From Sinorhizobium meliloti (GTDB lineage Bacteria > Pseudomonadota > Alphaproteobacteria > Rhizobiales > Rhizobiaceae), in assembly GCF_017876815.1 (NCBI RefSeq), contig NZ_JAGIOS010000003.1, positions 750,001-782,000 on the forward strand: DNA of 32,000 bases, in the 5' to 3' direction. Shown here piece by piece: positions 15,023 to 32,000 of this stretch (position 1 is the stretch's first letter; the number at the start of each line of letters is the position of its first letter). The notes beneath the pieces are model-generated. The model saw nothing but the letters and a program-made list of their open reading frames with translations. It did not search any database and was not told the origin of the DNA. The position numbers and the translations under genes were made by a program.

Positions 15023-17371
15023 CTAGCCGTAACGGCGGCTGCCGTTCACCTCTTTGCCTACAATTTCCCTTATGATAGTCAAAGTCTCTCTGGCGGCTTC
15101 CTTCGGCCGCAGAGCCGTATCGGCGACATTGCTCACAAGCTTCGTATTATTGTGGTCGATACCCTTCTCGGACCAGCGCTTTCCTTTGGCAACGGTAATA
15201 TAGACAGAATAAGCATGGTGCATCGTCCCGGGTCGTTCGCCGATAACATGGAGAATTCCCCTGAAGCTGTTTGGATCCGCGTTTTCGAACAGCATTTCGC
15301 CGATGCGGTAGCCGGCGCGCACCCGTCCGCTGGTGACCATGATGTTCTTGTCGCCCACGGTGACACCGGCCCCGGCAAGCAACCTGCGCATCTCCGCAAG
15401 GTAGGGTGCAAGATGCCCGTCGTCCATGATGGCTTTGGCGTTCAATCCATCCGAGATAACAACCTGGCCCTTCGGCAAGTCGTCTCCCCAGGAATCCCTT
15501 ATTCTTTCGATTTCCCGGATTCCTTCCGGGCTGAGCATTTCACCCGTATTGGGGTGGGCTATGTAATCGTTGCGGTCCTTGGACAAGGTGCGGACCGGCA
15601 CGACATCTGGTATGGCGGAAATGAACTCGGGAGTAAGTTCGGCCCAAAGAGATTGCTTCGCGTCGTCGTAGAGACCCTTCACCTTGGCTGCGAGCGTCGG
15701 ATTGAGATCCCATAAATTAGGCCCGTGGCCTGCGGCTAGGTCGACACCTCTCTCCTCAACTTCCCTCATCTTCTGGCGGCCCTCGGCGTAGATCGCGTCC
15801 TTGGACCGTCCATCCCCCTTGGCGAGCCGGTACTGGTAGTAGACCCAGAGAGGATCTGCGTAGTTCGCGGTATAGTTCCCGTCTCTACTCACGATGCCGA
15901 TTCGTTTGTAAAAGTCCCACATCGAGTCATTGACCTTGAAACCAAACTTGTCGCGCAATCGGACGTGATCCTGGAAGGATGTGGTGAGATAGCTCAGCAT
16001 CGGATCGTTCTTGGTAGGCAGCGCAATCAGATAAGCGGGATTAGCCGGCATGATCTGGTCCTGGCACCAATCCAGGTCGTCGAGGCTGACCGTCATGTGC
16101 AGGGTCGTGCAGATATCGAGGCCGATGGTGAGGCCATGGAGCTTGCCCATCACCATGTCCTCGAGACAGCACCGCACCAGTTGTTCCCGGCTCTTGAATA
16201 CTTCCGGTCCTATGAAGCCGGCGACATCGTTGACATGCAGCCATGCGCCTTCGGGCTGCACCTTCGCGAGTTCGATTCCGACCGCCCTGCTGAAGCCATA
16301 CTTCCGCGACTCAAGCACCATCATGTCGACGCCGTTCGCCGCACCGTTGGTGAACTCCGATCCCTGTCCGGTTTCGAAGTAAAGGCCATATCTCTCGCCC
16401 TTCTTCGCGCGGGCGTATTTCAGGATTTTCTCGTTCGTGATGTCGAAGATCTTGTTGCAGTCATCTGTTCCGGCAAGGCTCTGGAACATTGTGGAAACTG
16501 TTCCCGGAAAATTCGCGCCGGTTTCGGCCTGAACATCGATGTGCGCGAGCACGCACCATGGGATCACATCCGCCAGCCTGAACGTATCCACGATGTCCTT
16601 GAGCGCACGTTCAACCGCGGCCACGCTGCTTACAGTGCTGTCCACCGGGTTGGTGCCGATGACAATGTCGCCCGTCGCGTACGAGAAGGCATCGAAAACC
16701 TGCCAGGCGATGTCATCGGGATGGTCGGTGGGAGAATTCGGTTGGATACGGGCGCCCATATATCCCTTTGAACCCATCTTGGTGCCGGGCATCACATTGA
16801 AGATTTTCCGACTTAGGGAGATCAGCTCCTCATTGCTCATCAGTTTCGGAAGCAGGCCTATTGTGTCGCTCGTCAGGCCATCCATAATAGCTTTGATTTT
16901 TTCTTCTGTTTCGGTGATGAGAAATTTCGTCAACTGGCCCATCGTCCAGTCTTTGACATGTTCGTACTGGGCTTGGTCGGTGGTCTGCCAGATCAGTTTC
17001 TGGAGGTCGTCCTCAAACAGCGGGCGCTGGTAAAGATCCTTGATCTTGGTATTTGAAAGAAGAGCGCGAGCCTTTCTTCGACTTGCCTCATCCGCTGCTC
17101 CCACTCCAATCGCTTGATCTCCCTCTTTGAAATCATTCGCAGCGCCGATAACCTGCTGATAAGCAGCTTGATCGAAACCGCCTTTCTTTCTGCTGATGTA
17201 TGCAAAGACGTCCTCGCCGTGTTTCACATCATCGATTACGATGGTGAGTCCGCCAGAAGCGCTTTTGGCAGCGTGGCTGTAGCTTGCGAGCGTGGCGGTG
17301 GCTCCCGCCATTAACAGGAGATCTCGTCTGGTAAGCCCGTCACGCTGACGAGAGAACAAGCGCTTGCTCAT
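15023..17371 (-). CDS. ethanolamine ammonia-lyase-like EutB-EutC fusion protein with N-terminal twin-arginine signal
   Basis: 782 aa. Residues 1-37 read LTRRDLLLMAGATATLASYSHA/AK. Residues about 45-500 align with EutB (GVGAADE, YFETGQGSEF, VNDVAGFIGPEVF, LEDMVMGKLHGLTIGLDICTT, LSYLTTSFQDH). Residues about 620-770 align with EutC (VRTLSKDRNDYIAHP, QVVISDGLNAKAI, VIGERPG). AGGAAAGGAA RBS. Confidence 0.85.
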   Translation of the reverse strand: MSKRLFSRQRDGLTRRDLLLMAGATATLASYSHAAKSASGGLTIVIDDVKHGEDVFAYISRKKGGFDQAAYQQVIGAANDFKEGDQAIGVGAADEASRRKARALLSNTKIKDLYQRPLFEDDLQKLIWQTTDQAQYEHVKDWTMGQLTKFLITETEEKIKAIMDGLTSDTIGLLPKLMSNEELISLSRKIFNVMPGTKMGSKGYMGARIQPNSPTDHPDDIAWQVFDAFSYATGDIVIGTNPVDSTVSSVAAVERALKDIVDTFRLADVIPWCVLAHIDVQAETGANFPGTVSTMFQSLAGTDDCNKIFDITNEKILKYARAKKGERYGLYFETGQGSEFTNGAANGVDMMVLESRKYGFSRAVGIELAKVQPEGAWLHVNDVAGFIGPEVFKSREQLVRCCLEDMVMGKLHGLTIGLDICTTLHMTVSLDDLDWCQDQIMPANPAYLIALPTKNDPMLSYLTTSFQDHVRLRDKFGFKVNDSMWDFYKRIGIVSRDGNYTANYADPLWVYYQYRLAKGDGRSKDAIYAEGRQKMREVEERGVDLAAGHGPNLWDLNPTLAAKVKGLYDDAKQSLWAELTPEFISAIPDVVPVRTLSKDRNDYIAHPNTGEMLSPEGIREIERIRDSWGDDLPKGQVVISDGLNAKAIMDDGHLAPYLAEMRRLLAGAGVTVGDKNIMVTSGRVRAGYRIGEMLFENADPNSFRGILHVIGERPGTMHHAYSVYITVAKGKRWSEKGIDHNNTKLVSNVADTALRPKEAARETLTIIREIVGKEVNGSRRYG

Positions 17372-17493
17372 GGCCGATTCCTTTCCTGCAGGAGGTTCAG
17401 TGCAATGGGCAAATTTCGCACGAGCTTACCCCCGTGTGTCCAAAGCCCATACCGCAAATCCATGTCGTGCGTGCCACCGGAGTTTCAGCTGCG

Positions 17494-18813
17494 TCATAAC
17501 CATCCGCCCGTGAACCCGGCGCGCCTCAGTCCGACCACCAAGGGCTCGCACCGACGCATGACGTTCCACAAGAGGCCGGTCCTGTAGTTTTCGATCATGA
17601 GAACGACGGGACCCTGGTCGATGCCGAAGTGATAAGGAGTCACCCACCATCCCGTTTCGCTGCCTTCAACCGCAAAGGTCTGGTTGAAGGATGGCTTGAA
17701 GCCGTAGAGGCGTGTCATCCCCAGTTGCATCTGTGCAAAGTTCCAGACAGTCGGAATGACGATCTCCGGAGCGAACGGCAGGGACCCCACAACCACCCAG
17801 GGGGACACGGTGCCATCGTCCGGTCCAAAGGGCGCGCCGCGCGCGGTATAGTCGTAGAATTCCCTTTCCACGCCATCGACTGTTCTCTTGATCCAGCCGG
17901 GACCGTCGCTCGCGGTGAAGCCCCAGCAATGCTCGCCGTAACCGGCAAAGTTCAACGGGTTGCGGATGGCGTATTGCTGCTGGACGTAGGTCGCATGGCG
18001 GCTGTTCTGGAAGTAGTCGCTGTTGTGATCGCGCATGAATTCATCGCGGATCCCGCGAAAATCAATCCACATATGCGAGAGCTGGTGGGTGAAGAGTGGC
18101 CCCGAATAAAGCAGTTCGCGTCCGTAGATGTTTCTCCATTCGTAGCTCTCGGTATAGGCGGAATAGGCGTCCGGAGGCAGCGGATGGGTCCTTGATCCCA
18201 ATCCGAGAATGTAGAGCAGAAGCCCCTCGTCGTAACCACGCCAGCGATAGGGAATGAAGCCGCTTTCCGGTCGCCAGCCGTGGGTCAAGGTAGGCCCATG
18301 GTCACAGGCCCAGTTCCAGTCGGCCCGTTCGTAGAGCGTGTTGGCAAGCTGCCTAACCTCGACTTCGTCGGCGCTGTCGCCGTCGAAATAGGCGGCTACG
18401 GTCAAGGCTCCGGCAAACAGGAAGGCCGAATCGATCGTCGACAGCTCGCACTGCCAGACCCGCCGGCCGGTCTCGATGTCGAGGAAATGATAGAAGAAGC
18501 CCTTATAGCCAGACGCGTCGGGCTCCGGTCCCTGTGGGCAGGCCAGCAGGAATGCCAGCTTCTTTCGGGCGATCTTGGCCGCAAACTCGCGGATCAGGAC
18601 GCCGCGCTCGACGACCACGGGAAGCGCCGCGAGCGCCATGCCGATCGCGGCTATGCTCGCCGGAGCGTTGGGCTCGGTCTTGTCGCGAACGAGCCCGTTG
18701 TCCGGGTTGGTGCAATGGAGGTAATAGAGCAGCGTCGTGAACTGGAGCCGGCCGAGGTCCTGGTCGGTCGGCATGCGAGTGAGTTTCGGGGCGATCGATA
18801 GCATCTGTGACAT
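17494..18813 (-). CDS. GH144-like (putative glucoamylase-fold) endo-beta-1,2-glucanase family protein, no signal peptide
   Basis: 439 aa. Motifs remembered from the Glycoamylase/GH144 family: NGLVRDK, GFFYHFLD, STIDSAFLFAG, GWRPESGF, YDEGLLLYILGLGS, GIDQGPVVLMIENYRTGLLW. Starts 5 nt after the GH94 stop. Confidence 0.75.
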   Translation of the reverse strand: MSQMLSIAPKLTRMPTDQDLGRLQFTTLLYYLHCTNPDNGLVRDKTEPNAPASIAAIGMALAALPVVVERGVLIREFAAKIARKKLAFLLACPQGPEPDASGYKGFFYHFLDIETGRRVWQCELSTIDSAFLFAGALTVAAYFDGDSADEVEVRQLANTLYERADWNWACDHGPTLTHGWRPESGFIPYRWRGYDEGLLLYILGLGSRTHPLPPDAYSAYTESYEWRNIYGRELLYSGPLFTHQLSHMWIDFRGIRDEFMRDHNSDYFQNSRHATYVQQQYAIRNPLNFAGYGEHCWGFTASDGPGWIKRTVDGVEREFYDYTARGAPFGPDDGTVSPWVVVGSLPFAPEIVIPTVWNFAQMQLGMTRLYGFKPSFNQTFAVEGSETGWWVTPYHFGIDQGPVVLMIENYRTGLLWNVMRRCEPLVVGLRRAGFTGGWL

Positions 18814-18818
18814 AGTTT

Positions 18819-21800
18819 TTAGCCAAGGATCACTCGGACGTCGTGGAAACGACCATCATCTGCTAACGGTATCTTTGTGTCCGCCAGCGGTGTGTCATCA
18901 AGGAGAATCGAACGTACCCCGCGACAGACGCCGGCCGTGTTGTCCACGTGGATGCGGTATGTCGATGATCCGTGCCTGTACTTGATTTCGAACTCCGGCC
19001 AGTCGGTCGGTACACATGGTTCGATCAAAAGAAACTGGGCCTGTCGGCGAAAACCAAGGATCGCCTCGAGCGCGACGCGGTACAACCAGCCTGCTGCTCC
19101 CGTATACCATGTCCAGCCACCGCGGCCGGTATTTGGCGGTGCGCCGTAGACATCGGCGCTGACGACATATGGCTCGACCCTGTAATGCTGAGCGTCCTGC
19201 TTCGTCGTCGCGTGATTGATCGGATTCAGCAGGTTCCAAAGCTCCAGCGCCCGATCGCCGTCGCCTTGCAGCGCAGTGGCCAACACGACCCAGGCAGCCG
19301 CATGGGTATATTGCCCGCCATTTTCTCGTATGCCGGGAACATAGCCCTTGATGTAGCCCGGCTGCAGCGAACCCTTGTCGAATGGCGGATCGAACAACTG
19401 GATCAGCTTGTCCCGCCGGCGCACGAGTCTTTGATAGGCCGCGCTCATCGCCCTTGACGCGCGTTCATCGTCGGCTTCGCCAGAGATGACGGCCCAGGCC
19501 TGCGGAAGGGCATCGATCTGGCACTCGTCGTTCGAAGAGGAGCCGAGCGGCGTGCCGTCGTCAAAATAGGCGCGGCGGTACCAGGAGCCGTCCCAGGCGT
19601 GTTCTTCCAAGGCCGCGCGCAATCCTTCAGCACGTTCGCAGCACCAAGTTTCGCGGCTTTCGTCTCCACGCGATGACGCGATCGTCGCAAATGATTTCAG
19701 CACCGTCAGGAAGAACCAGCCGTTCCAAACACTTTCACCTCGGCCCTCGGCGCCGACCTTGTTCATGCCGTCGTTCCAGTCGCCCGTTCCCATGAGCGGC
19801 AAACCGTGCTGACCGAGCCGGAAACCGTATTCCAATGCACGGATACAGTGTTCGTAGAGCGTATCGGTCCGTTCGCTGACGTCCGGTTTGCCGAAGTCCT
19901 CCTCCTGGCCCTCCTTGAGAACGGGTGACGTGATGAAAGGCACCTGCTCATTAAGAAGGTCAACGTCGCCAGTCGCCGAAACGTAGTGGTGGACGACGAA
20001 AGGCAGAAAATAGAGGTCGTCGGTGATCCGTGTGCGCACGCCGACGCCGGACGGCGGGTGCCACCAATGTTGAACGTCTCCTTCCGTGAATTGACGCGCG
20101 GCTGCTCGCAGAATGTGTGCGCGTGTCTCGTCCGGCGCGCTGTGGACCAACGCCATCACATCCTGAAGCTGGTCCCTGAAACCGAATGCGCCCCCGGACT
20201 GATAAAAGCCAGACCGCCCCCAGACGCGACAAGCCAGGACCTGATACAGCAGCCAGCGATTCATCATCAGATTCATGCCGACGTCCGGTGTCGAGACCTG
20301 AACCGTATCCAGCAAATCGTTCCATTGACAGCATATGGCCGCGAAGCTTTCGCTCGCACGTTCCGGGTCGGCATAATCGCGCACAAGTCTGCGGACCTGC
20401 TCGTGGCTGCGGGCCTGCCCCAGAACAAAGATAACCTCCTTGCTCTCGCCGGGTGCCAGGGAGATCTCTACCATCAGCGCGGCACAGGGGTCCTGCAAGG
20501 GACCGAAGCTTTCTGCCAAATCGGTTCGCCCTAGGGCCGCTGGCGAGGACACTGAACCGTGTTTCCCAAGAAATTCCGCGCGGTCGGATGTCGTCGACCT
20601 CGGAGGCTGGCTGGCGGCCGCAAACGCAAGCCTTTTCGCGAAAACGCCGGCCCATGAGTTCCGTGCCATGATCGCATTCGATTTCGCATCGCGTTCGCAG
20701 ACGATTTGCATTGCCGTGTCGTCACGCTGGGTTCCCAACACCCATTCGGCGAAATACGTTGCGGTCAGATGGCGAGTTCGCGCGTCGTCATTGCTCAGCC
20801 TCAAATACATCACCTTGACCGGATCTTCCGGCGGAACATGCACCGTCAATTCGTGGTTCAGGCGCCGGCTACGGCTTACATAGCGACTATAGCCCTGGCC
20901 GTGATGAACAGTCACGAACGTTCCATGTCCAAGTGGCAGAGGCGTCGGAGTCCAGACGTCGCCGCTCTCCTCGTCCCTCAAGTAGATGACCTCGCCTGGC
21001 GTATCCGAAACGGGGTCGTTCGACCACGGCGTCAACCGGTTCATTTGGCTGTTGCCCCACCAGGTGTAGCCGAGCCCCGCCTCAGTCGTCAGGCAGCCGA
21101 AGTCCGGGTTGGCCAAAACATTGCTCCAAGGTGCGGGCGGCAAGGCCGGTGCTCGCGACTTAACGCCGTCCACCATGACGACATATTCGCGTCCCGAGGG
21201 GGTGAACCCCCCGAATCCGTTCCAATATAGCAAATCTTTAGTGGATGTGGTCGAAGCCGGCTCCGGGGGCTCTTCGCCCGTTTGAGCGGCCAGAATACGT
21301 GCAGGAAGTGATGCGGCGGGGGATTGCCGGTCGAACAGGCTTGCGAGAGGCCTGCCGCCATCCGGCAAGACGATCCGCGCTGCGGCCGTGATTGCATCCA
21401 GGTGATCGCTCGGGACCGTCGCTGCAGAAAGGACAAAGATTCCGCCTGGTTTGCCCAGCATTCCGGTTTGCGGGCCGGCTCGCAGATCTTTGGCAAGCCG
21501 CTCGGCACTACTCGCGCCACGCCTGTCATATAACGCAAGATCGAACAGCAGACCTCGGCGGCGGGCGAAGTCGTGCGCCATCCTCACTTCGCGAATGAGC
21601 GCGGCATCCCCGTCGCCATTCACGCGAACCAGCATGATTGGAAGATCACCGGAAATTCCGTGGGACCAAAGCGCTCCCCTATCCAGTGGATTTTTCTTCA
21701 GTGCCCTGGCCAATCGCATGGCCGGATTTGCAAACAGGATGCTCCCGGCAAGCTGGTTGAACAGCGACACGTCGCCGGGGGTTAAGTTCGAGCCCTGAAG

Positions 21801-22748
21801 CTCGCCTTGATACGCCTCCAGCGCTTCGGAGAAGGCGCGGTCCGCCCCCTCGATTGTCGAGTAGCGTTCGGCTATTTCCTGGGCCGCCTGTTGATTGTCC
21901 GTCGCTCCCGTGACAAAGGCGGCGCGCACCTTGGCTTTGGGTTTCAGATGGACAATCCTTTGCAGGCAGAAGATCGCATCGAGCACCGGCCCGGTCGACT
22001 TGGAAAGCATGGCACCTGGGTCCAGCATCGCGGGGTCAGCCGTCGTGCGGCCCCTTCCGAGGAATTTGAGCCGATCGGTCTCATGGGCGACTTCTGCCCG
22101 GATCTGTTGATCTGATGATGAAACATGGACGGCCCAGACGGGTGGCTCTGCCGCATCGCGCGGCCGGCGTCGCGCAAACAAAGCACCGGTCGCGTCATCG
22201 TGCTGCGTCTCCACGAAGAGCTTGGCAAAGGCCGGATGCGCCCTGTCCGCGCGGCGATCGTTCAGGCAGACCTCGGAATAGCTGGTAAGATCGAGGGTCC
22301 GCTCTCGTCCGCCATGGTTGACGACGGTAAGCTCACGCACTTCCGCGTCGGCATCCTGCGCGACGCAGACTTTCCAGGAGATTTCAATGTCTTCGGAACG
22401 ACAGGAGAACTCGGCCCGGTCTCCGTGAAAAGAGTGCGCGTAGCTGTTTGCAGGCTGGAAAACGGGTTGCTTGCCGATAGACCACACCGTTTTGTCCGCC
22501 TGGTCGCGGACGTAGCAAACCTGCCCCCAGCAATCTCGCGTGACATCTTCGCGCCACCGCGTGACGTCAAGGCTCCGCCAGATGGCACAACCCGCGCCTG
22601 CATCAGTAACCATGACGCTGTAACGGCCGTTGGAAAGCAGGGCGACGGCTGGGCCTGTATCCGCCAGCTCAGGCGAGCTGTCGTGTCTCGTCACCTCGGG
22701 CGGTCTGCGGCCTTGATTTGTTTTTGACATTGACGTTTCCCAGCTCAA
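18819..22748 (-). CDS. GH94-family glucan phosphorylase (NdvB/Cgs C-terminal-like; beta-1,2-oligoglucan phosphorylase-like), 1309 aa
   Basis: N-terminal LSNGRYSVMVTDAGAGCAIWRSLDVTRWREDVTRDCWG resembles the post-glycosyltransferase region of cyclic glucan synthases. The GH94 core has PPAPWSNVLANPDFG, GYTWWGNSQMNRLTPW, FGFRDQLQD, GDVQHWWHP, TGDWNDGMN and GESVWNGWF. No GT domain and no TM segments. Start is TTG 22748 or ATG 22730. Confidence 0.85.
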   Translation of the reverse strand: MSWETSMSKTNQGRRPPEVTRHDSSPELADTGPAVALLSNGRYSVMVTDAGAGCAIWRSLDVTRWREDVTRDCWGQVCYVRDQADKTVWSIGKQPVFQPANSYAHSFHGDRAEFSCRSEDIEISWKVCVAQDADAEVRELTVVNHGGRERTLDLTSYSEVCLNDRRADRAHPAFAKLFVETQHDDATGALFARRRPRDAAEPPVWAVHVSSSDQQIRAEVAHETDRLKFLGRGRTTADPAMLDPGAMLSKSTGPVLDAIFCLQRIVHLKPKAKVRAAFVTGATDNQQAAQEIAERYSTIEGADRAFSEALEAYQGELQGSNLTPGDVSLFNQLAGSILFANPAMRLARALKKNPLDRGALWSHGISGDLPIMLVRVNGDGDAALIREVRMAHDFARRRGLLFDLALYDRRGASSAERLAKDLRAGPQTGMLGKPGGIFVLSAATVPSDHLDAITAAARIVLPDGGRPLASLFDRQSPAASLPARILAAQTGEEPPEPASTTSTKDLLYWNGFGGFTPSGREYVVMVDGVKSRAPALPPAPWSNVLANPDFGCLTTEAGLGYTWWGNSQMNRLTPWSNDPVSDTPGEVIYLRDEESGDVWTPTPLPLGHGTFVTVHHGQGYSRYVSRSRRLNHELTVHVPPEDPVKVMYLRLSNDDARTRHLTATYFAEWVLGTQRDDTAMQIVCERDAKSNAIMARNSWAGVFAKRLAFAAASQPPRSTTSDRAEFLGKHGSVSSPAALGRTDLAESFGPLQDPCAALMVEISLAPGESKEVIFVLGQARSHEQVRRLVRDYADPERASESFAAICCQWNDLLDTVQVSTPDVGMNLMMNRWLLYQVLACRVWGRSGFYQSGGAFGFRDQLQDVMALVHSAPDETRAHILRAAARQFTEGDVQHWWHPPSGVGVRTRITDDLYFLPFVVHHYVSATGDVDLLNEQVPFITSPVLKEGQEEDFGKPDVSERTDTLYEHCIRALEYGFRLGQHGLPLMGTGDWNDGMNKVGAEGRGESVWNGWFFLTVLKSFATIASSRGDESRETWCCERAEGLRAALEEHAWDGSWYRRAYFDDGTPLGSSSNDECQIDALPQAWAVISGEADDERASRAMSAAYQRLVRRRDKLIQLFDPPFDKGSLQPGYIKGYVPGIRENGGQYTHAAAWVVLATALQGDGDRALELWNLLNPINHATTKQDAQHYRVEPYVVSADVYGAPPNTGRGGWTWYTGAAGWLYRVALEAILGFRRQAQFLLIEPCVPTDWPEFEIKYRHGSSTYRIHVDNTAGVCRGVRSILLDDTPLADTKIPLADDGRFHDVRVILG

Positions 22749-23490: not shown

Positions 23491-25953
23491 TCAGACGTTG
23501 TCCCCTTCCGTAGAGGTTTTCCGGGACACTGCTGTCGTGTCTTTCACGCCCCACTTCCATCCGCTGATCGCAAGCATGTCGTCGCCATGCTTTTCGATAT
23601 ATTCGCGATGCTCGATTAGCTTCTCGTGAATTGCCTGCTTGAAATAGGCGGCACGGGCACCGAGTTGCGGCAGCCGATCGATGACATCCTCGACGAGGTG
23701 GAACCGGTCGAGCTCGTTCAGGACCACCATGTCGAACGGGGTGGTCGTCGTGCCTTCCTCCTTGTAACCGCGCACGTGCAGGTTGCCGTGATTTTTTCTG
23801 CGATAGGTGAACCGATGGATCAGCCACGGATAACCGTGGAAGGCGAAGATGATCGGCTTGTCCCTTGTGAAGAAGGCGTCGAAATCACGGTCCGATAGCC
23901 CATGCGGATGCTCCTCCGCAGGTTGCAGCTTCATCAGGTTGACGACATTGATCACCCGCACCTTCAGCTCGGGCAGGTGTTCGCGGAGCAGTTGCACCGC
24001 CGCAAGTGTTTCGAGGGTCGGGACGTCGCCGCAACAGGCCATAACGACATCGGGCTCGCTGCCCTTGTCGCTGCTCGCCCAATCCCAGATGCTGAGGCCC
24101 ATGGCGCAGTGCCTAACGGCCTCGCTCATCGTCAGCCATTGCGGCGCAGGCTGTTTTCCGGCGACGACCACGTTGACGTAGTCGCGACTGCGCAGGCAGT
24201 GGTCCGTGACGCACAGCAGGGTGTTGGCGTCCGGCGGCAGGTAGACGCGGATCACGTCCGCCTTTTTATTGACGACATGGTCGATGAAGCCAGGGTCCTG
24301 ATGGCTGAAGCCGTTGTGATCCTGTCGCCAGACATGCGAACTGAGGAAATAGTTCAGTGAGCCGATGGGTCTGCGCCACGGGATTTCGCCACACACCTTG
24401 AGCCACTTGGCATGCTGGTTGAACATTGAGTCGATGATGTGGATGAAGGCTTCGTAGCAGGAGAAGAAGCCGTGGCGGCCTGTCAGCAGGTAGCCTTCCA
24501 GCCATCCCTGGCACTGGTGCTCGCTCAGTACTTCCATGATGCGGCCGTCCGGCGAGAGATGGTCGTCCTCCGGATAGATATCCGCCATGTAGCAGCGATC
24601 GGTTACCTCAAGCACATCCTGCCAGCGGTTGGAGTTGTTCTCGTCCGGACTGAACAGCCGGAAGTTCTTGCTCTCCAGGTTCGCCTTCATCACGTCGCGC
24701 AGGAACTTGCCCATGGCGCGGGCTGACTCGGCCATAGTCGCGCCAGGGCTGGTTACCTCCACGGCGTAGTCCCTGAAATTCGGCATCTTCAAATCACGCA
24801 AAAGCAACCCGCCGTTGGCGTGGGGGTTGTCGCTCATCCGGCGGTGGCCCGCCGGAGCGAGCGATGCAATTTCAGTCGTGAGCCGACCGGTCTCGTCGAA
24901 AAGCTCCTCGGGCCGATAGCTTTTCATCCATTGTTCGAGAATGCGGATATGCTCCGGCTTGTCCATCTCGCCCATGGGCACCTGATGCGATCGCCAGTAG
25001 TCCTCGCATTTCTTGCCATCGATCTCCGGCGGGCACGTCCAGCCCTTTGGCGTCCGAAAGACAATCATCGGCCATGCCGGGCGCTTGAGATTGCCGTTCG
25101 TGCGGGCATCGGCCCAGATTTCCTTGATCTTGCCGACCACAGTGTCGAGCACGCCTGCGAGCTTCTGGTGAACATCCTCGGGATCACGGCCCTCGACAAA
25201 ATATGGCCTGTATCCCATCCCCTCGAAGAACTTGCGCAATTCCTCCTCGGGAATGCGGGCGAGGAAGCAGGGGTTGGCAATCTTATAGCCGTTCAGGTGA
25301 AGGATCGGCAGCACACAGCCGTCGCGGGCAGGATTGAGGAATTTGTTGCTTTGCCAGCCGGTCGCGAGCGGACCGGTCTCGGCCTCCCCGTCGCCAACGA
25401 CACAGGCGATGATCAGATCGGGATTGTCGAATGCCGCGCCATAGGCATGGCTGAGCGCGTATCCGAGTTCGCCGCCCTCGTGGATGCTGCCGGGTGTCTC
25501 GGGCGCGACATGGCTCGGTATGCCGCCGGGGAAGCTGAACTGCTTGAACAGCCGCTTCATCCCTTCCGTATCCTCGCTGATATTCGGATAGAACTCACTA
25601 TAGGTGCCTTCGAGATAAGCGTGCGCCACCAATGACGGTCCGCCGTGGCCGGGGCCGATGACGTAGATCATGTTGAGATCGTCGCGTTTGATGACCCGGT
25701 TCAGATGCACATAGAGCATGTTGAGACCGGGCGACGTCCCCCAGTGGCCGAGCAGTCGCGGCTTGATATGCTCGCGCTTCAGGGATTCCCGCAATAGCGG
25801 ATTGTCGAGCAGATATATCTGGCCGACTGAGAGATAGTTGGAAGCTCGCCAGTAGGCGTCCATCAAGCGGAGTTCCGCGGATGACAGCACGGCTGCTACA
25901 TGTGACTTGCCTGATGTTGTCTCGTTCATCGCTGCCGTTTCAAGCGAAGTCAT
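23491..25953 (-). CDS. xfp: phosphoketolase (xylulose-5-P/fructose-6-P phosphoketolase)
   Basis: About 820 aa. Has [42 protein letters not shown] and GDGEAETGP. Start trimmed to ATG 25953 (MTSLE...), which is preceded by GGGAGG. Confidence 0.92.
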
Positions 25954-25995: not shown

Positions 25996-26009
25996 CTTGC
26001 TGTGATGCA
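25996..26009. promoter_or_regulatory. candidate FixK2-type box TTGC-N6-GCAA between adh and xfp
   Basis: TTGCTGTGATGCAA (part of the palindrome GCTTGC-N6-GCAAGC) fits TTG(A/C)-N6-(T/G)CAA. A minus-strand TATGAT (25966-25971) lies about 34 nt from the box centre. It could equally be a small hairpin after the adh stop. Confidence 0.3.
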
Positions 26010-26011
26010 AG

Positions 26012-27040
26012 CTATTGCAATCGCACGACTATGCGACCGTCGATCTTGCCCGCTTCCATGCGATGAAAGATGTCGTTGATGTTCTCGAGGCTCTCCCACG
26101 AGAAATAAGGCTTTACCTTGCCTTCCGCCGCGAACACGAGCGATTCCTCAAGGTCTTGACGGGTGCCCACGATTGATCCACGCACGGTTATGCGTTTCAG
26201 GACGGTCTCGAAAACCGGCAAGGACATCATTCCGGGGGGAAGGCCGACCAAGACCATCGTACCTTTCGACCGCAGGAAACCAAAGGCCTGTTCCATGGCG
26301 GCGGGAGAGACAGCGGTCACGAGCACTCCGTGAACGCCGCCGCTCGTGGCCTTCTGTACCTGCTCGATTGCATCTTCTGACTTGCCGTTTATTGCGATGT
26401 CGGCGCCAAGTTGCTTAGCCAGCGCCAGCTTGTCTTCGAATATGTCGGCGGCCACTACGTGCATTCCCATTGCCTTGGCATATTGCACCGCCATGTGGCC
26501 GAGACCCCCGACGCCCGAGATGGCCACCCATTCACCGGGACGGACTTCCGTTTCCTTCAGCCCCTTGTAGACGGTCACTCCCGCGCAGAGAACGGGCGCG
26601 GCGGCTCCGAATTCCAACCCATCAGGAATCTTTCCGACGAACTCGGGATCTGCCAGTCCGAACTCCGCGAAGGTGCCGTTCACTGAGTACCCGGTGTTCG
26701 ATTGCGAAGCGCACAGCGTTTCCCAACCGGTCCGGCAATAGGTACAGTAACCGCAAGCGGTGTGGAGCCATGGCACCCCAACCTTGTCACCTTCTTTCAC
26801 TCTCCTCACGCCGGCGCCCACGGCTGAGACGAAGCCAACACCCTCATGCCCTGGAATAAAGGGCGGGGCCGGCTTAACGGGCCAATCGCCGTTTGCCGCA
26901 TGCAGATCGGTATGGCACACGCCCGTCGCTTCATATTTTACCAGGACCTGCCCCGCGCCAGGCGTTGGGACTTCCATCTCCTCTATGGTCAGCGGAGCGC
27001 GGAACTGGCGTACGACAGCCGCCTTCATTGTCTGTGCCAT
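26012..27040 (-). CDS. zinc-dependent alcohol dehydrogenase (AdhA/AdhP type)
   Basis: Trimmed to ATG 27040 (MAQTMKAAVV...) behind GGAGGGG. Has GVCHTDLH, GHEGVG, the structural-zinc region CGYCTYCRTGWETLC and GVGGLGH. Confidence 0.9.
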   Translation of the reverse strand: MAQTMKAAVVRQFRAPLTIEEMEVPTPGAGQVLVKYEATGVCHTDLHAANGDWPVKPAPPFIPGHEGVGFVSAVGAGVRRVKEGDKVGVPWLHTACGYCTYCRTGWETLCASQSNTGYSVNGTFAEFGLADPEFVGKIPDGLEFGAAAPVLCAGVTVYKGLKETEVRPGEWVAISGVGGLGHMAVQYAKAMGMHVVAADIFEDKLALAKQLGADIAINGKSEDAIEQVQKATSGGVHGVLVTAVSPAAMEQAFGFLRSKGTMVLVGLPPGMMSLPVFETVLKRITVRGSIVGTRQDLEESLVFAAEGKVKPYFSWESLENINDIFHRMEAGKIDGRIVVRLQ

Positions 27041-27119
27041 TTGCATTCCCCTCCATCTCATACGGCTTCAGAGACACCTCTCAGGGGGGTGCCGAGAGTT
27101 TGCGTTGTGAACGGCAGCG

Positions 27120-27791
27120 CTATTGAGTGTAGGGATCTGGAAAATGCTCCACGATGCCCCTGACCCCGTGGACACTCTCAGCCACGATCCGCGCGGCCCT
27201 GCGACAAGCGGCCGTCTCGACTTGGCCCCAAAAGTGCACGATCCCCTCGGTGACCGTGACAGTCACGTCCAGTTCTTCCAGACCCGTGTTTTCGCCGAGG
27301 CGAACAAGGATGCTGCGTCGAATGGCTTCGTCGCCCGCTGCTGTTTCGTCTGGCTTCGTTGAAAAAATTGCCTGCAGCAGGTCGGCGCGGCTGACGATGC
27401 CGACCAGTTCCCCATCGCGCATTACGGGGATGCGCTTGATACCGCGTTCCTGCATGAGCCCTGCAACGCGCGCAAGGGGCGCTTCCTCCTCAATGGTTAC
27501 GGGGTTGGCCGTCATGACGTCGCCGACGCGCCACGAGCATCGCCTGATGAAGGCGTTCGCCCTGTCATCGGGATCGATCGCCATGTCCGCCATCAACACG
27601 GATGCTCCACTGCAGAGTTCCGTCCGCCGGATCAGGTCGCCCTCACTGATGACGCCGAGCAAGCGCCCATCGTCGTCAACGACCGGGACGCCGCTTACGT
27701 GGTGGTCGAACATCAGCTTGGCTGCCTGTCTAACGCTGTTGTCAGGCGACAGTTTGACAACCTTTGTCGTCATCACATCCTTGACAAGCAT
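27120..27791 (-). CDS. CBS-pair plus BON domain protein
   Basis: 223 aa. Two CBS motifs (VKDVMTTKVV...VSGVPVVDDDGRLLGVISEGDL and VGDVMTANPV...IKRIPVMRDGELVGIVSRADL). C-terminal BON-like LDVTVTVTEGIVHFWGQVET...VHGVRGIVEHF. Confidence 0.85.
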   Translation of the reverse strand: MLVKDVMTTKVVKLSPDNSVRQAAKLMFDHHVSGVPVVDDDGRLLGVISEGDLIRRTELCSGASVLMADMAIDPDDRANAFIRRCSWRVGDVMTANPVTIEEEAPLARVAGLMQERGIKRIPVMRDGELVGIVSRADLLQAIFSTKPDETAAGDEAIRRSILVRLGENTGLEELDVTVTVTEGIVHFWGQVETAACRRAARIVAESVHGVRGIVEHFPDPYTQ

Positions 27792-28061
27792 ATCGATCGA
27801 ACTCCGGTACAGACGTCTCCGCCACTACGGCACCGCGCCTATAAGACGCGCGAAAGATGCTGTAGCGCCTTGGACCGCTGCGAAGCTGAGTTGAGCCGTA
27901 CTCAAGCAAGCTCCGCGACGATCTCAAGCGTGGCCCATGGAGATCCGCCTGATTGTGAACCCCTCCGTCCTGTGCTGCCATTCCGAAAAGCGAATTGCAG
28001 CGGAAAGATGCTGAACGCCGACTTCCTCGTGTGACGATAAGGCAAAAGGGACCGGTCGGCA

Positions 28062-28075
28062 TTGACCGGAGTCAA
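28062..28075. promoter_or_regulatory. FNR/FixK-type box TTGA-N6-TCAA
   Basis: TTGACCGGAGTCAA (arms ATTGA/TCAAT) lies in about 570 bp with no convincing ORF. A minus-strand -10-like CTTATC (28036-28041) lies about 30 nt from the box centre, so the orientation fits the CBS-adh-xfp gene string. Confidence 0.5.
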
Positions 28076-28115
28076 TATATCGACACTTGCTCCGGCGAAT
28101 CGAGAAGCTCGTCCG

Positions 28116-28140
28116 GCGCTGATTTCGTCGATATCAGCGC
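28116..28140. repeat. 8-bp inverted repeat GCGCTGAT-N9-ATCAGCGC
   Basis: Read directly, about 45 nt from the FNR/FixK box. Function unknown. Confidence 0.5.
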
Positions 28141-28358
28141 GTTGCCAGATGCTCCCCGACAAACTCGCCCAGCGTCTGACACAGCAGAGTGCTGCCATGC
28201 GGATCGGGTATGTCCATCAAGCCTCGCCTAGTTCAGTCCGCCCGGAAGCGCACCCGGTCCGCTTGGATTTGACGGAGATCAATGCTCAAAAGGCAGTGTT
28301 GGTGTATGTGCGATCAGAGACTGGGACCGCCCTCCGTTCAAGCCGAGGAGTAGACCGA

Positions 28359-28752
28359 ATGCCTCAGCCGACTATCTCATCATTCGCAGACGCCTCGCCT
28401 ATGCGCTCGATGCCTGGCAGCGTTCTATCCTGCTTCTCGACGTGATGCGCCAGCGCGGTGAACAGTACCGAGAATACAGCGCGCAGACCGCTCCGCACGT
28501 GCTGAACTAGGACGCGGAACTGTCCTCGACGGTCGCACGCTCGATAGACCGGTCAACTGTGCTCGCCCAGATAATCCCGCCCGGGGGCGGCGTTGTCGAC
28601 ACGCTGAAGCGATCCTTCGTCCCCATCGAGCGGCGAGCCGACCACGCAAGCCTTGCGTGATCGGCAACTGCCAGGCCGGCGGAGCGCTGATGAGCCTCGC
28701 ATCGCTGCGCCCGGAACTGTTCAGTCCGTTCGTCGTCCCACCAAACGAATGA
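28359..28752 (+). pseudogene. decayed remnant of a DUF3141-like (so-called 3-hydroxyalkanoate synthetase-like, alpha/beta-fold) gene
   Basis: ATG 28359 lies behind GAGGAG. Family-like segments sit in shifting frames: AYALDAWQRSILLLDVMRQRGEQY...APHVLN, then TAG (28508-28510), DAEL, out-of-frame VLDGRTLDRPVNCAR, IIPPGGGVVDTLKRSFV, then a large deletion joining to KPCVIGNCQAGGALMSLASLRPELF. The family name is recalled from memory. Confidence 0.5.
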
Positions 28753-28947: not shown

Positions 28948-30237
28948 TTGGCGTTAGAATACCTGAAAGGGTGGAGTGTGACGCAGTCTGCAGATAATAA
29001 AAGACCTGACTCCGGCGTGTCGGACGACTCGATCAACATGCTGCTGCGGTTTGCCGTTATGATGCTTCGTTCCGGGGGCACCGCGATCCGTACCCGCGAA
29101 CTGGTGGGGGCGATGGCGCACCGCCTCAACCTGGAAACGCCATCGGTGAGTCTCACGCTCGAGTCCGTCACCCTCAGTGTTTACCACGGCAGCGAACAGT
29201 TCGTAGCGATGCGCGAGGTCGGTCCGCCCGGAATCGACTTCAGGCGCATCGGTGAGTTGGAGCGGCTTGCGAACGCGTTAGAGCCAACGGCACCGCCACA
29301 CCGGATAGCGAAAGAACTTGCTGAAATCGAAGCGCGGGCGCCTCAATATACCGGCTGGCAGATGGCGATCGCGATCGGCCTGGCCAGCGGAGGCTTTGCG
29401 TTCCTCAACGGAGCGGCCCTGCCGGAAATGGCCAGCGCCGCGATCGGTGGCGGCATAGGTCAAGGATTGCGCTGGTGGTTGACCCGCCGCCAATTGACAC
29501 ACTTCGGCACGGCGGCACTGGCTGCCATAACCGCTGCAGGAACTTACGTTCTGGTGGCAGCGCTGGCGCGCCGTGCAGGGTTTGCGTTCTCGCACTATGC
29601 TGCGGGCTTCATCTCCACCATACTATTTCTCATCCCCGGCGTTTCGCTGATTGCAGGACTGTTCGATCTGTTGCAGCATCAGACGGTGGCCGCCTTGAGC
29701 CGGCTGGCATATGGCGCGCTGATCCTGTTCATCGTCGCTTCGGGGCTGAGCATCGTGGTGACTGTTGCGGCCATCGAGCTGTTGCCACGCTCGGCGCCGG
29801 CCGAGCTTGCCTATCCGTTGCGCCTTTCGTTGCGCGCCGTCGCGAGCTTCGTTGCCGGCTGCGGCTTCGCCATGCTGTTCAACAGCACGCCACTTTCGTT
29901 GGTTGTCGCGGGCATCGTGGCGCTGGCGGCGAATAGCGTGCGCCTCGTCCTGATCGACATGGGAATGCCGTTGGCGCCGGCGGCGTTCATCGCCGCGTTG
30001 TTGATAGGAATCATCGCCATTCTTGTGAGCCGGCGGTTGGACGCAGAGCTCATGGCGATTGTTACCGCGCCGGTCGTCATCATGATTCCGGGTCTCTACG
30101 TATTCGAGATGCTTGTTCTGCTCAACCGGGGGCAGACGCTCGAGGCCATGCAGGCCTCGGGGGCAGGGATCTTCGTGATCAGCGCGCTCGCGATGGGGTT
30201 GAGCGTGGCGCGCCTCGCAGTCCCGTGGGAAAGTTAG
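28948..30237 (+). CDS. threonine/serine exporter (ThrE) family membrane protein (fused ThrE + ThrE_2 halves)
   Basis: Has LLRFAVMMLRSGGTAIRTRELV..., followed by about 10 hydrophobic segments. A likely true start is GTG 28978, behind GGTGGAG. Confidence 0.8.
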   Translation: MALEYLKGWSVTQSADNKRPDSGVSDDSINMLLRFAVMMLRSGGTAIRTRELVGAMAHRLNLETPSVSLTLESVTLSVYHGSEQFVAMREVGPPGIDFRRIGELERLANALEPTAPPHRIAKELAEIEARAPQYTGWQMAIAIGLASGGFAFLNGAALPEMASAAIGGGIGQGLRWWLTRRQLTHFGTAALAAITAAGTYVLVAALARRAGFAFSHYAAGFISTILFLIPGVSLIAGLFDLLQHQTVAALSRLAYGALILFIVASGLSIVVTVAAIELLPRSAPAELAYPLRLSLRAVASFVAGCGFAMLFNSTPLSLVVAGIVALAANSVRLVLIDMGMPLAPAAFIAALLIGIIAILVSRRLDAELMAIVTAPVVIMIPGLYVFEMLVLLNRGQTLEAMQASGAGIFVISALAMGLSVARLAVPWES

Positions 30238-30425: not shown

Positions 30426-30492
30426 CCTGCGCGCTACCGATCGAAACGAGGCGTGTGGCCGCCTGCCTGATATTGACAGCTCCTATCCCGCG

Positions 30493-31278
30493 CTAGTCGA
30501 CGATGTGGTAGCCGCCGTCGACGTAAAGCACCTGGCCGGTTATGAGTCGCGCCGCGTCGTGGGCGAGAAACGCGGTCGCCATGCCGACGTCATCAATGTC
30601 GACGAGCTCGTTGGCCGGTGCCTTCAGCTTCGTCTTTTCAAGCAGCGCGTCGAATTCCGGGATACCGGAAGCGGCTCGGGTGGCAAGCGCCCCCGGCGAT
30701 ATGGCGTGGACGCGAATGCCCTTGGAGCCAAGCTCGGCGGCCATGTAGCGCACGGCGCTTTCGAGCGCTGCCTTGGCGACCCCCATGATGTTGTAGTTCT
30801 CCACCACCACCTGTGACCCGTAATAGGTCATTGTGAAAAGCGTCCCACCGTTCTTCATCAGCGGCTCCGCGAGTTGCGCCATACGGATGAAGGACCAGCA
30901 GGAAATCTCCATCGTAGTCAGAAACCCCTCGCGCGGCGCATCGGTCACACGCCCGCCGAGGGTGTCCCTCGGGGAGAAGGCGATCGAGTGGACGAGGAAG
31001 TCGAGCTCTCCCCAGGTTTCGCCGATGCGCTCGAAGACCGCCTCGATCTGTCCAGGCACCGCCATGTCGAGCGGCAGGAAGATCGGGGCGTCGAGCTCGC
31101 GTGCCAGCGGCTCGACATGTGGCTTTGCCTTGTCGTTGAGATAGGTCACCGCGAGTTCCGCGCCCAAGGCACGAAACGCGCGGGCACAACCCCAGGCAAT
31201 AGAGCGATCGTTGGCAATGCCGACGATCAGGCCCTTACGACCTTCGAGAAGCTTGGCCTTGACGGTTGGAATGGACAT
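30493..31278 (-). CDS. fabI: enoyl-[acyl-carrier-protein] reductase (NADH), FabI
   Basis: ORF trimmed to ATG 31278 (MSIPTVKAKLLEGRKGLIVGIANDRSIAWG...) behind GGAGA. Has HSIAF, the Y..MGVAKAALE catalytic pattern, and VDGGYH. Confidence 0.9.
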   Translation of the reverse strand: MSIPTVKAKLLEGRKGLIVGIANDRSIAWGCARAFRALGAELAVTYLNDKAKPHVEPLARELDAPIFLPLDMAVPGQIEAVFERIGETWGELDFLVHSIAFSPRDTLGGRVTDAPREGFLTTMEISCWSFIRMAQLAEPLMKNGGTLFTMTYYGSQVVVENYNIMGVAKAALESAVRYMAAELGSKGIRVHAISPGALATRAASGIPEFDALLEKTKLKAPANELVDIDDVGMATAFLAHDAARLITGQVLYVDGGYHIVD

Positions 31279-31292
31279 GCGGCAGTCTCCAG

Positions 31293-32000
31293 TCAGGCGT
31301 TGGGAGCGCTGATGAGCGCCAAGGTATGGCGCGCGATCATCAGCTCTTCGTCGGTTTGAAGGACATGAACGGCAACCCGGCTCTCGGCCGTTGAGATCAA
31401 CGCAGCGCCAGCCTCGTTTGCCGCCGGATCGAGCTCTGCCCCGAGCCACGCGAGGCCTTCGACGATACGTGCGCGGATCGAGGGCGAGTTCTCGCCGACG
31501 CCCGCGGTAAAGACGAAGGCATCGATTCCTCCCAGTGCCGCCGCGAGCATGCCCGCATTGAGCACACACCGGTAAACGAAATGAGCAACGGCGAGCGCGG
31601 CATGTGGGTCGTCACTCGCCAGAAGATCGCGCATGTCGTTCGAGAGGCCCGACAACCCTTTGAGCCCGGCGTCATGATAGAGGAGATCCGAGACGGCTTG
31701 CGCCTTCATGCCCTTCTGGAGGATCAGGTAGAGGACGACGCCCGGATCGAGCTGGCCCGGCCGCGTCCCCATCGGCAACCCGTCGAGGGCGGTGAAGCCC
31801 ATTGTGCTCTCGATGCTGCGGCCGTCGCGCAACGCGCACATCGAAGCACCGCTGCCGAGATGAGCGACGACGACGCGCCCCTTGGCCGCTCTCGACGCCA
31901 CGTCTCGGAGCCGCTCGGCGATATATTCATACGAAAGTCCGTGAAAGCCGTAGCGCCGGACACCCTCATCATAGAAGCTTCGCGGCAGGGCATAGCAATC
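31293..32000 (-). CDS. ackA: acetate kinase, C-terminal two-thirds (5'-partial at window edge)
   Basis: The frame is open to nt 32000. Has [48 protein letters not shown] and TDEELMIA. The stop is 14 nt upstream of the fabI start. Confidence 0.9.

Follow-up and report, generated by a model that had tools for sequence, protein, structure and literature searches.

The stretch analyzed here is a 32,000-nucleotide window of Sinorhizobium meliloti DNA (contig NZ_JAGIOS010000003.1, positions 750,001 to 782,000), to which all coordinates refer unless another record is named. Its part from 15023 to 32000 matches both pSmeSM11c (the pSymA of S. meliloti SM11) and RU11/001 at 100% identity, and it carries two minus-strand gene runs that place a predicted pair of β-1,2-glucan enzymes, a GH94 phosphorylase-type protein and a GH144-family protein, close to a phosphoketolase and an acetate kinase. 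Gene identities were assigned by Pfam, NCBIfam and solved-structure searches. These confirmed the domains that a first-pass annotation of the DNA had listed for the two runs and added a gene that it had overlooked, a ThrE-family exporter gene on the plus strand (28948-30237; Pfam ThrE and ThrE_2, annotated in CP140882 as threonine/serine exporter family protein), which parts the ackA-fabI run from the run that extends from the CBS gene to eutBC.

The longer run begins with a protein composed of two CBS domains and a BON domain (27120-27791; Pfam), which is 96% identical to a protein of strain 1021, where its orthologue is SMa0636 by the coordinates in the table of transcription start sites. 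It is probably an adenine-nucleotide-sensing or regulatory protein, and its gene is also the first of the cluster in S. medicae, S. fredii, Rhizobium leguminosarum, Mesorhizobium sophorae, Pararhizobium, and Ensifer adhaerens. The zinc-dependent alcohol dehydrogenase (ADH) AdhP follows (26012-27046; NCBIfam AdhP equivalog, 376.8 bits with a cutoff of 344; Pfam ADH_N and ADH_zinc_N). The clusters of R. leguminosarum and E. adhaerens lack it, whereas those of S. medicae, S. fredii, S. terangae, Pararhizobium, and M. sophorae include it. The third gene encodes the phosphoketolase Xfp (23491-25953; XFP_N, XFP, and XFP_C; NCBIfam phosphoketolase, 1529 bits with a cutoff of 962). This is a second, pSymA-borne copy, with a chromosomal paralogue that is approximately 82% identical at the nucleotide level. 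The run continues with hisP, encoding a histidine-phosphatase family protein of 189 amino acids (22905-23474; His_Phos_1), a stand-alone GH94 protein of 1303 amino acids with two GH94 supersandwich domains and a catalytic domain (18819-22730), a GH144-family endo-β-1,2-glucanase homologue (17494-18813; PF10091), and a EutB-EutC fusion of 782 amino acids with a Tat signal (15023-17371; EutB and EutC domains in Pfam and NCBIfam).

The shorter run comprises fabI (30493-31278; NCBIfam FabI equivalog, 437 bits with a cutoff of 337) and the C-terminal 235 codons of the acetate kinase gene ackA (31293-32000), whose start lies beyond the window end. The translated part is continuous with an intact AckA of 393 amino acids in SM11. 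A reading of ackA as a pseudogene was ruled out for the window, given the intact SM11 copy and a frameshift confined to strain ml46 (CP140882, here locus L001, 32200-33450), where the gene has no CDS listing. In the annotated sister record L001, pta and an intact DUF3141 gene lie upstream of ackA, and fabI is the last gene of a DUF3141-pta-ackA-fabI unit, an order also found in M. sophorae and in a betaproteobacterial metagenome-assembled genome (MAG). This operon was reportedly described by Summers et al. in 1999 as PhoB-controlled in S. meliloti. The proposal that AdhP and FabI serve to reoxidize NADH gained no specific support; no acetaldehyde dehydrogenase is encoded in the cluster, and fabI is part of the DUF3141-pta-ackA-fabI unit. 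The DUF3141-like remnant placed between the runs by the first-pass annotation does exist, on the plus strand and not the minus strand: it is a frameshifted 5' fragment (approximately 28346-28749), in which tblastn with the intact pSymA DUF3141 protein aligns amino acids 18 to 102 at 28397-28648 (58% identity, E = 4e-23) and amino acids 145 to 192 at 28603-28737 in a different frame.

The GH94 protein contains PF06165 in two copies (E = 2e-150) and PF17167 (E = 1e-124), which place it in the family. Its residues 27 to 1268 (1242 residues) align with residues 1539 to 2790 of the cyclic glucan synthase (Cgs) of Agrobacterium tumefaciens (E = 6e-293), a range that takes in the N-terminal GP1 subdomain and the Rossmann-like insert (residues 1847 to 2012 of Cgs; boundaries per PMC10901819). 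The identity to S. meliloti NdvB is approximately 40%. The motif GDWNDGM aligns with ADWNDCL of 1V7V (ending at residue 499), the aspartate equivalent to D492 of chitobiose phosphorylase (ChBP) being conserved, and D984 and D987 are invariant across 14 homologues. Asp492 is the catalytic residue of ChBP. The cellobiose and chitobiose phosphorylases match the last 800 residues only. A stop codon lies just 5' of the start codon of the open reading frame, and the rhizobial orthologues likewise stand alone. Judged from these alignments, the protein corresponds to the phosphorylase half of a cyclic glucan synthase, encoded as a separate copy, and is not a cellobiose-type enzyme. Its marginal match to a characterized SOGP (given below) sets it outside the 1,2-β-oligoglucan phosphorylase clade (EC 2.4.1.333, Lin1839/LpSOGP), although it may function like an SOGP. 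It belongs to a subfamily of 2798 database proteins at an E value of ≤1e-20 among the candidates scored.

The resemblance to the GP half of Cgs extends over the whole of that half, to the conserved Asp motif, and to the presence of a GH144-fold partner. In contrast to Cgs (approximately 2800 amino acids), however, the window GH94 is a separate soluble protein without GT84 glycosyltransferase, membrane helices, or cyclase domain, it is paired with the product of a downstream gene, a true GH144 hydrolase-type protein, rather than with an upstream cyclase domain, and its context is central-carbon catabolism rather than glucan export. The C-terminal domain of Cgs phosphorolyses linearized cyclic glucan (PMC3960220) and sets the chain length in a phosphate-dependent manner (PMC10901819). 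For the window GH94, we infer that β-1,2-glucan is the substrate, that glucose-1-phosphate is released in a phosphate-dependent reaction, and that the reaction runs in this direction.

The GH144 gene starts 5 bp past the GH94 stop codon. Its product matches PF10091 with an E value of 2e-79, and its closest solved relatives are XCC2207/XcSGL (8XUL, E = 4e-112) and CpSGL (5GZH, E = 7e-34), followed by further GH144 structures. Both named proteins are GH144 enzymes according to a study of β-1,2-glucanases (PMC12102758), and the window protein is a predicted endo-β-1,2-glucanase. The alignment with XcSGL begins at chain residue 34, versus residue 7 of the window protein. No signal peptide or membrane segment is visible in the N-terminal sequences of GH94 or GH144, and both proteins appear to be cytoplasmic.

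It is conceivable that the pair works in the opposite direction, with GH94 making linear β-1,2-glucan from glucose-1-phosphate (supplied, for example, by the glycogen phosphorylase GlgP) and GH144 trimming it, in a UDP-glucose-independent route with a parallel in the CY and GP domains of Cgs. In its favor, GH94 phosphorylases can run in reverse, and β-1,2-glucan is synthesized with the aid of SOGPs (PMC3960220, PMC12102758). The homology of the window GH94 is to part of a synthase, the Cgs cyclase domain has a fold related to that of GH144 (PMC10901819), and a glgP gene lies in the S. fredii cluster. However, the window GH144 is far closer to the hydrolytic XcSGL, and Cgs is not among its PDB matches at an E value of ≤1e-3. 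Moreover, the linkage to Xfp, AckA, and phosphoglucomutase (PGM) suits the consumption of hexose phosphate, and the cluster is without an exporter. Cellular phosphate levels, too, usually favor phosphorolysis. A biosynthetic role is thus quite improbable, and the two enzymes are read below as a catabolic, glucan-degrading pair.

The best solved relatives of the HisP protein are Mycobacterium tuberculosis Rv3214/Gpm2 (E = 1e-36) and yeast YKR043C (E = 2e-27), the latter being the sedoheptulose bisphosphatase Shb17. HisP is therefore a candidate sugar-bisphosphate phosphatase resembling sedoheptulose and fructose bisphosphatases (SBPase/FBPase). Its gene adjoins that of Xfp in loci L011 and L085 of gamma- and betaproteobacteria, and in a further locus (L043) the order GH94-AckA-Xfp is followed further along by a class I aldolase and HisP. 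A bisphosphatase is required in cyclic phosphoketolase schemes akin to non-oxidative glycolysis, into which HisP would fit.

The minus-strand gaps from the CBS gene to eutBC measure 73, 58, 16, 174 (hisP-GH94), 5, and 122 bp (GH144-eutBC). No terminator-like structure was found in the gaps checked, which included hisP-GH94 and GH144-eutBC, and the RNA folding z-scores of these two gaps (−0.37 and +0.36, respectively) reveal no structured element in either. The 174-bp gap is 93% identical in S. medicae. The genes from CBS to GH144 may be co-transcribed across this gap.

The linkage of phosphoketolase to the glucan enzymes is conserved well beyond S. meliloti. Among orthologous stand-alone GH94 proteins of 57 to 94% identity, the Xfp-GH94-GH144 core occurs in at least 11 rhizobial species, with GH144 directly downstream of GH94 in at least 10, and the adjacency of Xfp and GH94 persists through changes in gene order. 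S. medicae has CBS-ADH-Xfp-HisP-GH94-GH144; S. fredii has, on the chromosome, CBS-ADH-GlgP-Xfp-GH94-GH144, with the glycogen phosphorylase gene between those of ADH and Xfp; and R. leguminosarum has CBS-Xfp-GH94-GH144 with a convergent AckA-Pta pair. The core order Xfp-GH94-GH144 is found in R. mongolense and Pseudaminobacter, GH144-GH94-Xfp-ADH-CBS in Pararhizobium sp. A13 (divergent from Pta-AckA), GH144-GH94-Xfp-CBS in E. adhaerens, and AckA-FabI-Xfp-GH144-CBS-GH94 in Mesorhizobium sp. LjNodule214. In E. canadensis, Xfp adjoins GH94, and in an uncultured alphaproteobacterium Xfp is linked with both GH94 and GH144. In M. sophorae, nine genes form an uninterrupted single-strand array, DUF3141-Pta-AckA-FabI-CBS-ADH-Xfp-GH94-GH144, which unites both S. 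meliloti runs (ackA-fabI and CBS to GH144). There are two exceptions: S. terangae has EutBC-GH94-ADH-CBS and no Xfp, and Rhizobium sp. CB3171 has CBS-GH144-Xfp and no GH94.

Similar neighborhoods, that of L043 among them, are found outside the Rhizobiales. A Steroidobacteraceae MAG has the order GH94-GH144-HisP-Xfp, and in a Bryobacteraceae MAG a phosphoglucomutase gene overlaps the start of GH94. In another locus (L010), GH94-GH144 is immediately preceded by a reading frame for RpiB, transaldolase, and phosphoglucose isomerase (PGI), and Xfp lies at a distance of 6 kb. The GH94 neighbors in these loci are enzymes for the conversion of glucose-1-phosphate to fructose-6-phosphate, for the phosphoketolase split, and for C4/C3 recycling. 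On the ground of comparative genomics, a functional linkage between the glucan enzymes and phosphoketolase is well supported. The first-pass annotation had proposed such a joining of glucan phosphorolysis to phosphoketolase and acetate kinase, and synteny across the Rhizobiaceae and Phyllobacteriaceae, the nine-gene array of M. sophorae, the GlgP gene in the S. fredii cluster, and the PGM or RpiB/Tal/PGI genes beside distant GH94s bear it out. It had also regarded this fusion as a new element of the present strain and had suggested a comparison of xfp-GH94 synteny across the Rhizobiales; the linkage recurs there and, being widespread, is neither unique to nor new in this strain.

A scan of contigs with the GH94 alignment returned 80 related loci, with Xfp in 5 of them, a count that is misleading since 62 of the 80 are long fused genes of the full-length Cgs type. 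Clustering of the nearest neighbors across these 80 loci gave no shared neighbor other than GH144. In two betaproteobacterial MAGs, a full-length Cgs-type gene (approximately 2980 amino acids) is linked with HisP-Xfp or FabI-AckA-Pta-DUF3141 (L085, 4928-16901; L060, 4952-20554). The presence of full-length Cgs genes beside genes of acetyl-phosphate metabolism indicates that the linkage extends beyond the stand-alone GH94. In R. leguminosarum and Pseudaminobacter, the gene immediately preceding CBS/BON encodes a BacA/SbmA-like ABC membrane protein (L091, 4641-6329; L099, 4392-6074), and in Pseudaminobacter a sugar ABC transporter adjoins GH144. These proteins, both lacking in S. meliloti, may be partners in transport.

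Within S. meliloti the region is variable. Sixteen pSymA records match 15023-32000 at ≥99.4% identity and ≥80% coverage, whereas 1021 and 2011 retain from it the CBS/BON gene alone. Strain 1021 differs from the SM11 type by two deletions. The first extends from inside a TPR-family gene (13256) to just past adhP (27084), in the CBS-ADH spacer, and its junction shows a microhomology of 1 to 3 nucleotides, with the truncated 5' end of the flanking TPR gene remaining. The second results from recombination between duplicated copies of the CBS 5' end and promoter (described below) and removed thrE, fabI, ackA, pta, and DUF3141. The alternative of an insertion limited to strains of the SM11 type was ruled out by the TPR remnant and the recombinant promoter copy of 1021. 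As read from these remnants, the region is accessory in S. meliloti, and the cluster is ancestral and was lost by the laboratory strains. Work on 1021 and 2011 could, therefore, not have detected the cluster. Natural presence/absence variants exist in the species and can be used for direct comparison.

The variability of the region bears on whether the genes are coupled at all. CBS-adhP-xfp-hisP, GH94-GH144, and eutBC might be separate transcription units in a variable accessory region rich in FixK boxes, with no metabolic coupling. The gaps of 174 and 122 bp would suit such an arrangement, as would the deletions in 1021 and 2011, the S. terangae GH94 without Xfp, and the Xfp-GH144 of Rhizobium sp. 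CB3171 without GH94. However, the adjacency of Xfp and GH94 in at least 11 species, with gaps as small as 30 bp, makes mere neighborhood very improbable as an account of these two genes. It is probably right for eutBC alone, and the coupling of GH94 and GH144 to Xfp remains the preferred reading for the rest of the run.

Perfect boxes of the FixK/FNR type (TTGA-N6-TCAA) occur three times in the window, where 0.34 are expected, and 2 of 100 shuffles reach this number. Class II promoters of this kind are recognized by a box centered approximately 41.5 bp upstream of the transcription start. Box 1 (28062-28075, TTGACCGGAGTCAA) is a putative class II-type site for the run from CBS to GH144, and box 2 (28269-28282, TTGACGGAGATCAA) would serve a divergent promoter on the plus strand. 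The start site map of 1021 places SMa_TSS0899 at pSymA position 341243 (plus strand, first bases GAG) and SMa_TSS0900 at 341265 (TTT) (PMC3616915, supplementary file 2). The homologue of box 1 in 1021 is identical (341196-341209) and is centered 40.5 bp upstream of SMa_TSS0899. Transfer through the colinear alignment predicts the start of the minus-strand run at 28028, where the first three transcribed bases, GAG, agree with 28028-28026, a second start at approximately 28006, and a 5' untranslated region (UTR) of approximately 237 nucleotides. Box 2 has the same spacing in 1021, its homologue being centered 40.5 bp from SMa_TSS0898, a divergent start with 1020 reads, which predicts a plus-strand start at approximately 28316, about 30 nucleotides ahead of the DUF3141 remnant. 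The equal spacing of both boxes points to a divergent pair of class II-type promoters, and both boxes are conserved in S. medicae.

Box 1 had been recognized at 28062 in the first-pass annotation, which overlooked the perfect boxes at 28269-28282 and 12895-12908. Its weaker box at 25996 (TTGCATCACAGCAA) does not hold, having two core mismatches and, in S. medicae, a 1-nucleotide insertion at the position; boxes with one mismatch number 13 in the window versus 9.2 expected and are not above chance. The third perfect box (12895-12908, TTGATCCACATCAA) lies 89 bp upstream of the TPR gene mentioned above. This gene (12991-14751, plus strand) encodes a TPR-containing hypothetical protein of 586 amino acids with a weak HilA/EilA-like match and converges on eutBC; 1021 retains its first 88 codons, and the upstream region there differs. 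The 1021 map also records SMa_TSS0901 (SMa_sRNA_52), at pSymA 341374 on the minus strand (107 reads), opposite the 5' UTR of SMa0636 and corresponding to approximately 27897 (plus strand) inside the CBS leader, and an antisense start, SMa_asRNA_193, inside SMa0636.

The promoter region (27792-28368) is duplicated 8.7 kb away on pSymA with 90.7% identity (L001, 37165-38134). The duplication takes in the CBS leader, both FixK-type boxes, and a DUF3141 5' fragment, and the second copy, with a truncated CBS 5' fragment, precedes DUF3141-pta-ackA-fabI, the interval being free of terminator-like sites. A single type of FixK promoter, present twice, may thus drive both runs. The promoter region of 1021 appears to have arisen by recombination of these copies. 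Control by FixK has indirect support from the literature. The region of 1021 from SMa0631 to SMa0697 is dense in FixK motifs and co-regulated (PMC5596199); SMa0636 is not listed in the supplements of that study. Genes for phosphoketolase, CBS protein, and Zn-ADH belong to the predicted extended regulon of FixK (PMC2908626), and genes of these types are induced by microoxia in Bradyrhizobium diazoefficiens (PMC6515984).

Taken together, these features suggest, with a probability of roughly 0.55, a conserved catabolic cluster in which intracellular phosphorolysis of β-1,2-glucan is coupled to Xfp and AckA-Pta and which is under FixK-type control in S. meliloti and S. medicae. In such a pathway, cytoplasmic GH144 would cut cyclic or long β-1,2-glucan to linear oligomers, from which the stand-alone GH94 would remove glucose units as glucose-1-phosphate with no ATP spent. 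Housekeeping Pgm and Pgi would convert this to fructose-6-phosphate, and Xfp would split fructose-6-phosphate or xylulose-5-phosphate to yield acetyl-phosphate, which AckA would turn into acetate and ATP or Pta into acetyl coenzyme A. HisP, as a possible sedoheptulose/fructose bisphosphatase, may recycle erythrose-4-phosphate and glyceraldehyde-3-phosphate, and such recycling would make the route largely redox-neutral. The CBS/BON protein would probably sense or regulate the energy state. In S. meliloti and S. medicae, CBS-adhP-xfp-hisP-GH94-GH144 would be transcribed from the class II FixK/FNR-type promoter with its start near 28028, and the duplicated promoter upstream of DUF3141-pta-ackA-fabI would allow both halves to be switched on under oxygen limitation. 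The gene identities, the conserved linkage, the position of the box relative to the mapped start, and the duplication are direct observations; from them we infer the physiological role and the FixK dependence of the box 1 promoter.

Several points weigh against this pathway. Rhizobial cyclic glucans are exported to the periplasm, both enzymes are apparently cytoplasmic, and the S. meliloti cluster is without an importer. Phosphorylases are reversible, and the match of GH94 to the SOGP of Lachnoclostridium phytofermentans (5H3Z) is marginal (E = 0.0014, 19 bits). The S. meliloti cluster lacks genes for the Pgm, Pgi, and transketolase/transaldolase steps, and an internal promoter could lie inside the 174-bp hisP-GH94 gap. 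The starts mapped in 1021 give position and not oxygen or FixK dependence, the main text of the mapping study being without mention of oxygen (PMC3616915), and a k-mer genome-wide association study (GWAS) ties cluster genes to salt tolerance and not to hypoxia (PMC12855168). Lastly, no FixK box, even with one mismatch, occurs in the 600 bp upstream of the CBS gene in seven other species.

These seven species, Pararhizobium, E. adhaerens, S. terangae, S. fredii, R. leguminosarum, R. mongolense, and M. sophorae, share a different motif, TTGTCG-N9-CAA(C/G)AGGTTTAA, located approximately 50 to 75 nucleotides upstream of the CBS start codon and found once per locus (L003, 18736; L004, 17561; L005, 17533; L088, 2735; L091, 6359; L097, 6354; L098, approximately 5440). 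S. meliloti and S. medicae lack it and carry the FixK boxes instead. The motif (TTGTCG-N9-CAACAGGTTTAAT) reads as a σ70-like −35/−10 pair with a conserved spacer, and it could not be matched to the consensus sequences of FixK, σ54, EcfG/RpoE2, RpoH, or Pho boxes. With FixK boxes confined to two species and another motif elsewhere, low oxygen is not established as the conserved signal of the cluster. The low-oxygen control proposed in the first-pass annotation thus stands as plausible only for S. meliloti and S. medicae, where box 1 lies at class II distance.

The conserved non-FixK motif would also suit a different explanation, in which GH94 and GH144 remodel or recycle cyclic β-1,2-glucan upon changes in osmolarity, and their linkage to xfp, ackA, CBS, and ADH stems from a common regulon for stress or stationary phase rather than from a dedicated fermentative route. 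In the GWAS mentioned above, on 49 S. meliloti strains, COG0406, COG3957, COG3459, and COG0280 are listed among the loci linked to tolerance of 600 mM NaCl (PMC12855168), which correspond to histidine phosphatase, phosphoketolase, GH94 ("NdvB"), and Pta. Moreover, full-length Cgs-type genes on Burkholderia and Acidiphilium plasmids lie among genes for OsmC, CsbD, slipin, and poly-β-hydroxybutyrate (PHB) depolymerase. The GWAS signal, however, rests on five strains and may reflect lineage, and the FixK-type boxes of S. meliloti and S. medicae lie at class II distance from mapped starts. Furthermore, a role in osmotic or general stress leaves unexplained why PGM, PGI/Tal/RpiB, GlgP, Xfp, and AckA flank GH94 across lineages. 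This explanation is therefore judged unlikely, and a catabolic cluster that feeds glucan-derived sugar phosphate to phosphoketolase is preferred.

The proposed pathway has partial counterparts in known systems. In SOGP systems, an endo-glucanase produces sophoro-oligosaccharides and a cytosolic GH94 converts them to glucose-1-phosphate (PMC3960220, PMC12102758), as proposed here. Unlike them, the S. meliloti cluster is without an ABC importer and a β-glucosidase, is linked to phosphoketolase and acetate kinase, and belongs to a host that itself makes β-1,2-glucan. Phosphoketolase, a CBS protein, and Zn-ADH also figure among the low-oxygen FixK/FnrN regulon members of alphaproteobacteria, and box 1 shows TTGA-N6-TCAA at class II distance; in the window, however, they stand at the head of a run that goes on to the glucan enzymes, and only S. 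meliloti and S. medicae have the boxes. The lxa locus of Burkholderia cenocepacia, whose genes are strongly induced at low oxygen, contains acetate kinase, a phosphate acetyl/butyryl transferase, Zn-ADH, and a PHA-synthase-like gene (PMC3721108), a set comparable to DUF3141-pta-ackA plus adhP of the S. meliloti locus. In contrast to the window, lxa is rich in universal stress proteins, and the text of the lxa paper is without phosphoketolase, CBS protein, glucan, or glycogen (PMC3721108).

All gene families of the cluster are thus already known, and low-oxygen control of xfp, CBS, and ADH has been predicted or measured in alphaproteobacteria. In the searchable literature, no conserved coupling of a stand-alone Cgs-type GH94 and GH144 to phosphoketolase and acetate kinase was found, nor any connection of phosphoketolase with GH94, GH144, or cyclic glucan in rhizobia, nor a characterization of the GH94 subfamily of the window. 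Cyclic β-1,2-glucans are regarded as osmoprotectants and as symbiosis or virulence factors, and to our knowledge there is no intracellular turnover route for them in the bacteria that produce them. If the proposed pathway is true, they would additionally serve as a store of carbon and energy, a function would be assigned to a large GH94 subfamily, and the presence of phosphoketolase in the low-oxygen regulons of aerobic alphaproteobacteria would be explained.

A broader version may tentatively be considered, with the odds rather against it. Rhizobia and scattered other bacteria would use their own β-1,2-glucan (together with glycogen in S. fredii) as an energy reserve, which GH94 and cytoplasmic GH144 would feed, as glucose-1-phosphate, into a largely redox-neutral cycle of Xfp, SBPase-like HisP, and AckA, akin to non-oxidative glycolysis, for ATP formation free of respiration. 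In S. meliloti and S. medicae, the cycle would have been rewired by the duplicated FixK promoter for microoxic, possibly nodule, life.

The last gene of the longer run stands apart from the others. The EutB-EutC fusion has a twin-arginine motif (TRRDLLL), with the RR kept in 96 of the 120 best homologues, which points to a Tat-exported, presumably cobalamin-dependent ammonia-lyase, an unusual prediction for the enzyme family. The fusion is common to approximately 120 close homologues (75 to 100% identity) in Rhizobiaceae, Phyllobacteriaceae, Microvirga, and Geminicoccaceae. It adjoins GH94 in S. meliloti and S. terangae only and is not in the cluster of S. medicae, S. fredii, R. leguminosarum, or Mesorhizobium, so that, contrary to its initial assignment as a member of the run, it is a neighbor rather than a core member and probably lies outside the conserved unit.

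On the other side of the TPR gene, the window segment 4446-8218, upstream of the cluster region, encodes a triple-PAS histidine kinase, two response regulators (one of the LuxR type), and an AraC regulator. These regulators are adjoined by Gfo/Idh/MocA, Zn-dehydrogenase, and SDR genes, and some of the COGs encoded there, COG0673 and COG0596, also appear in the list of the salt tolerance GWAS (PMC12855168).

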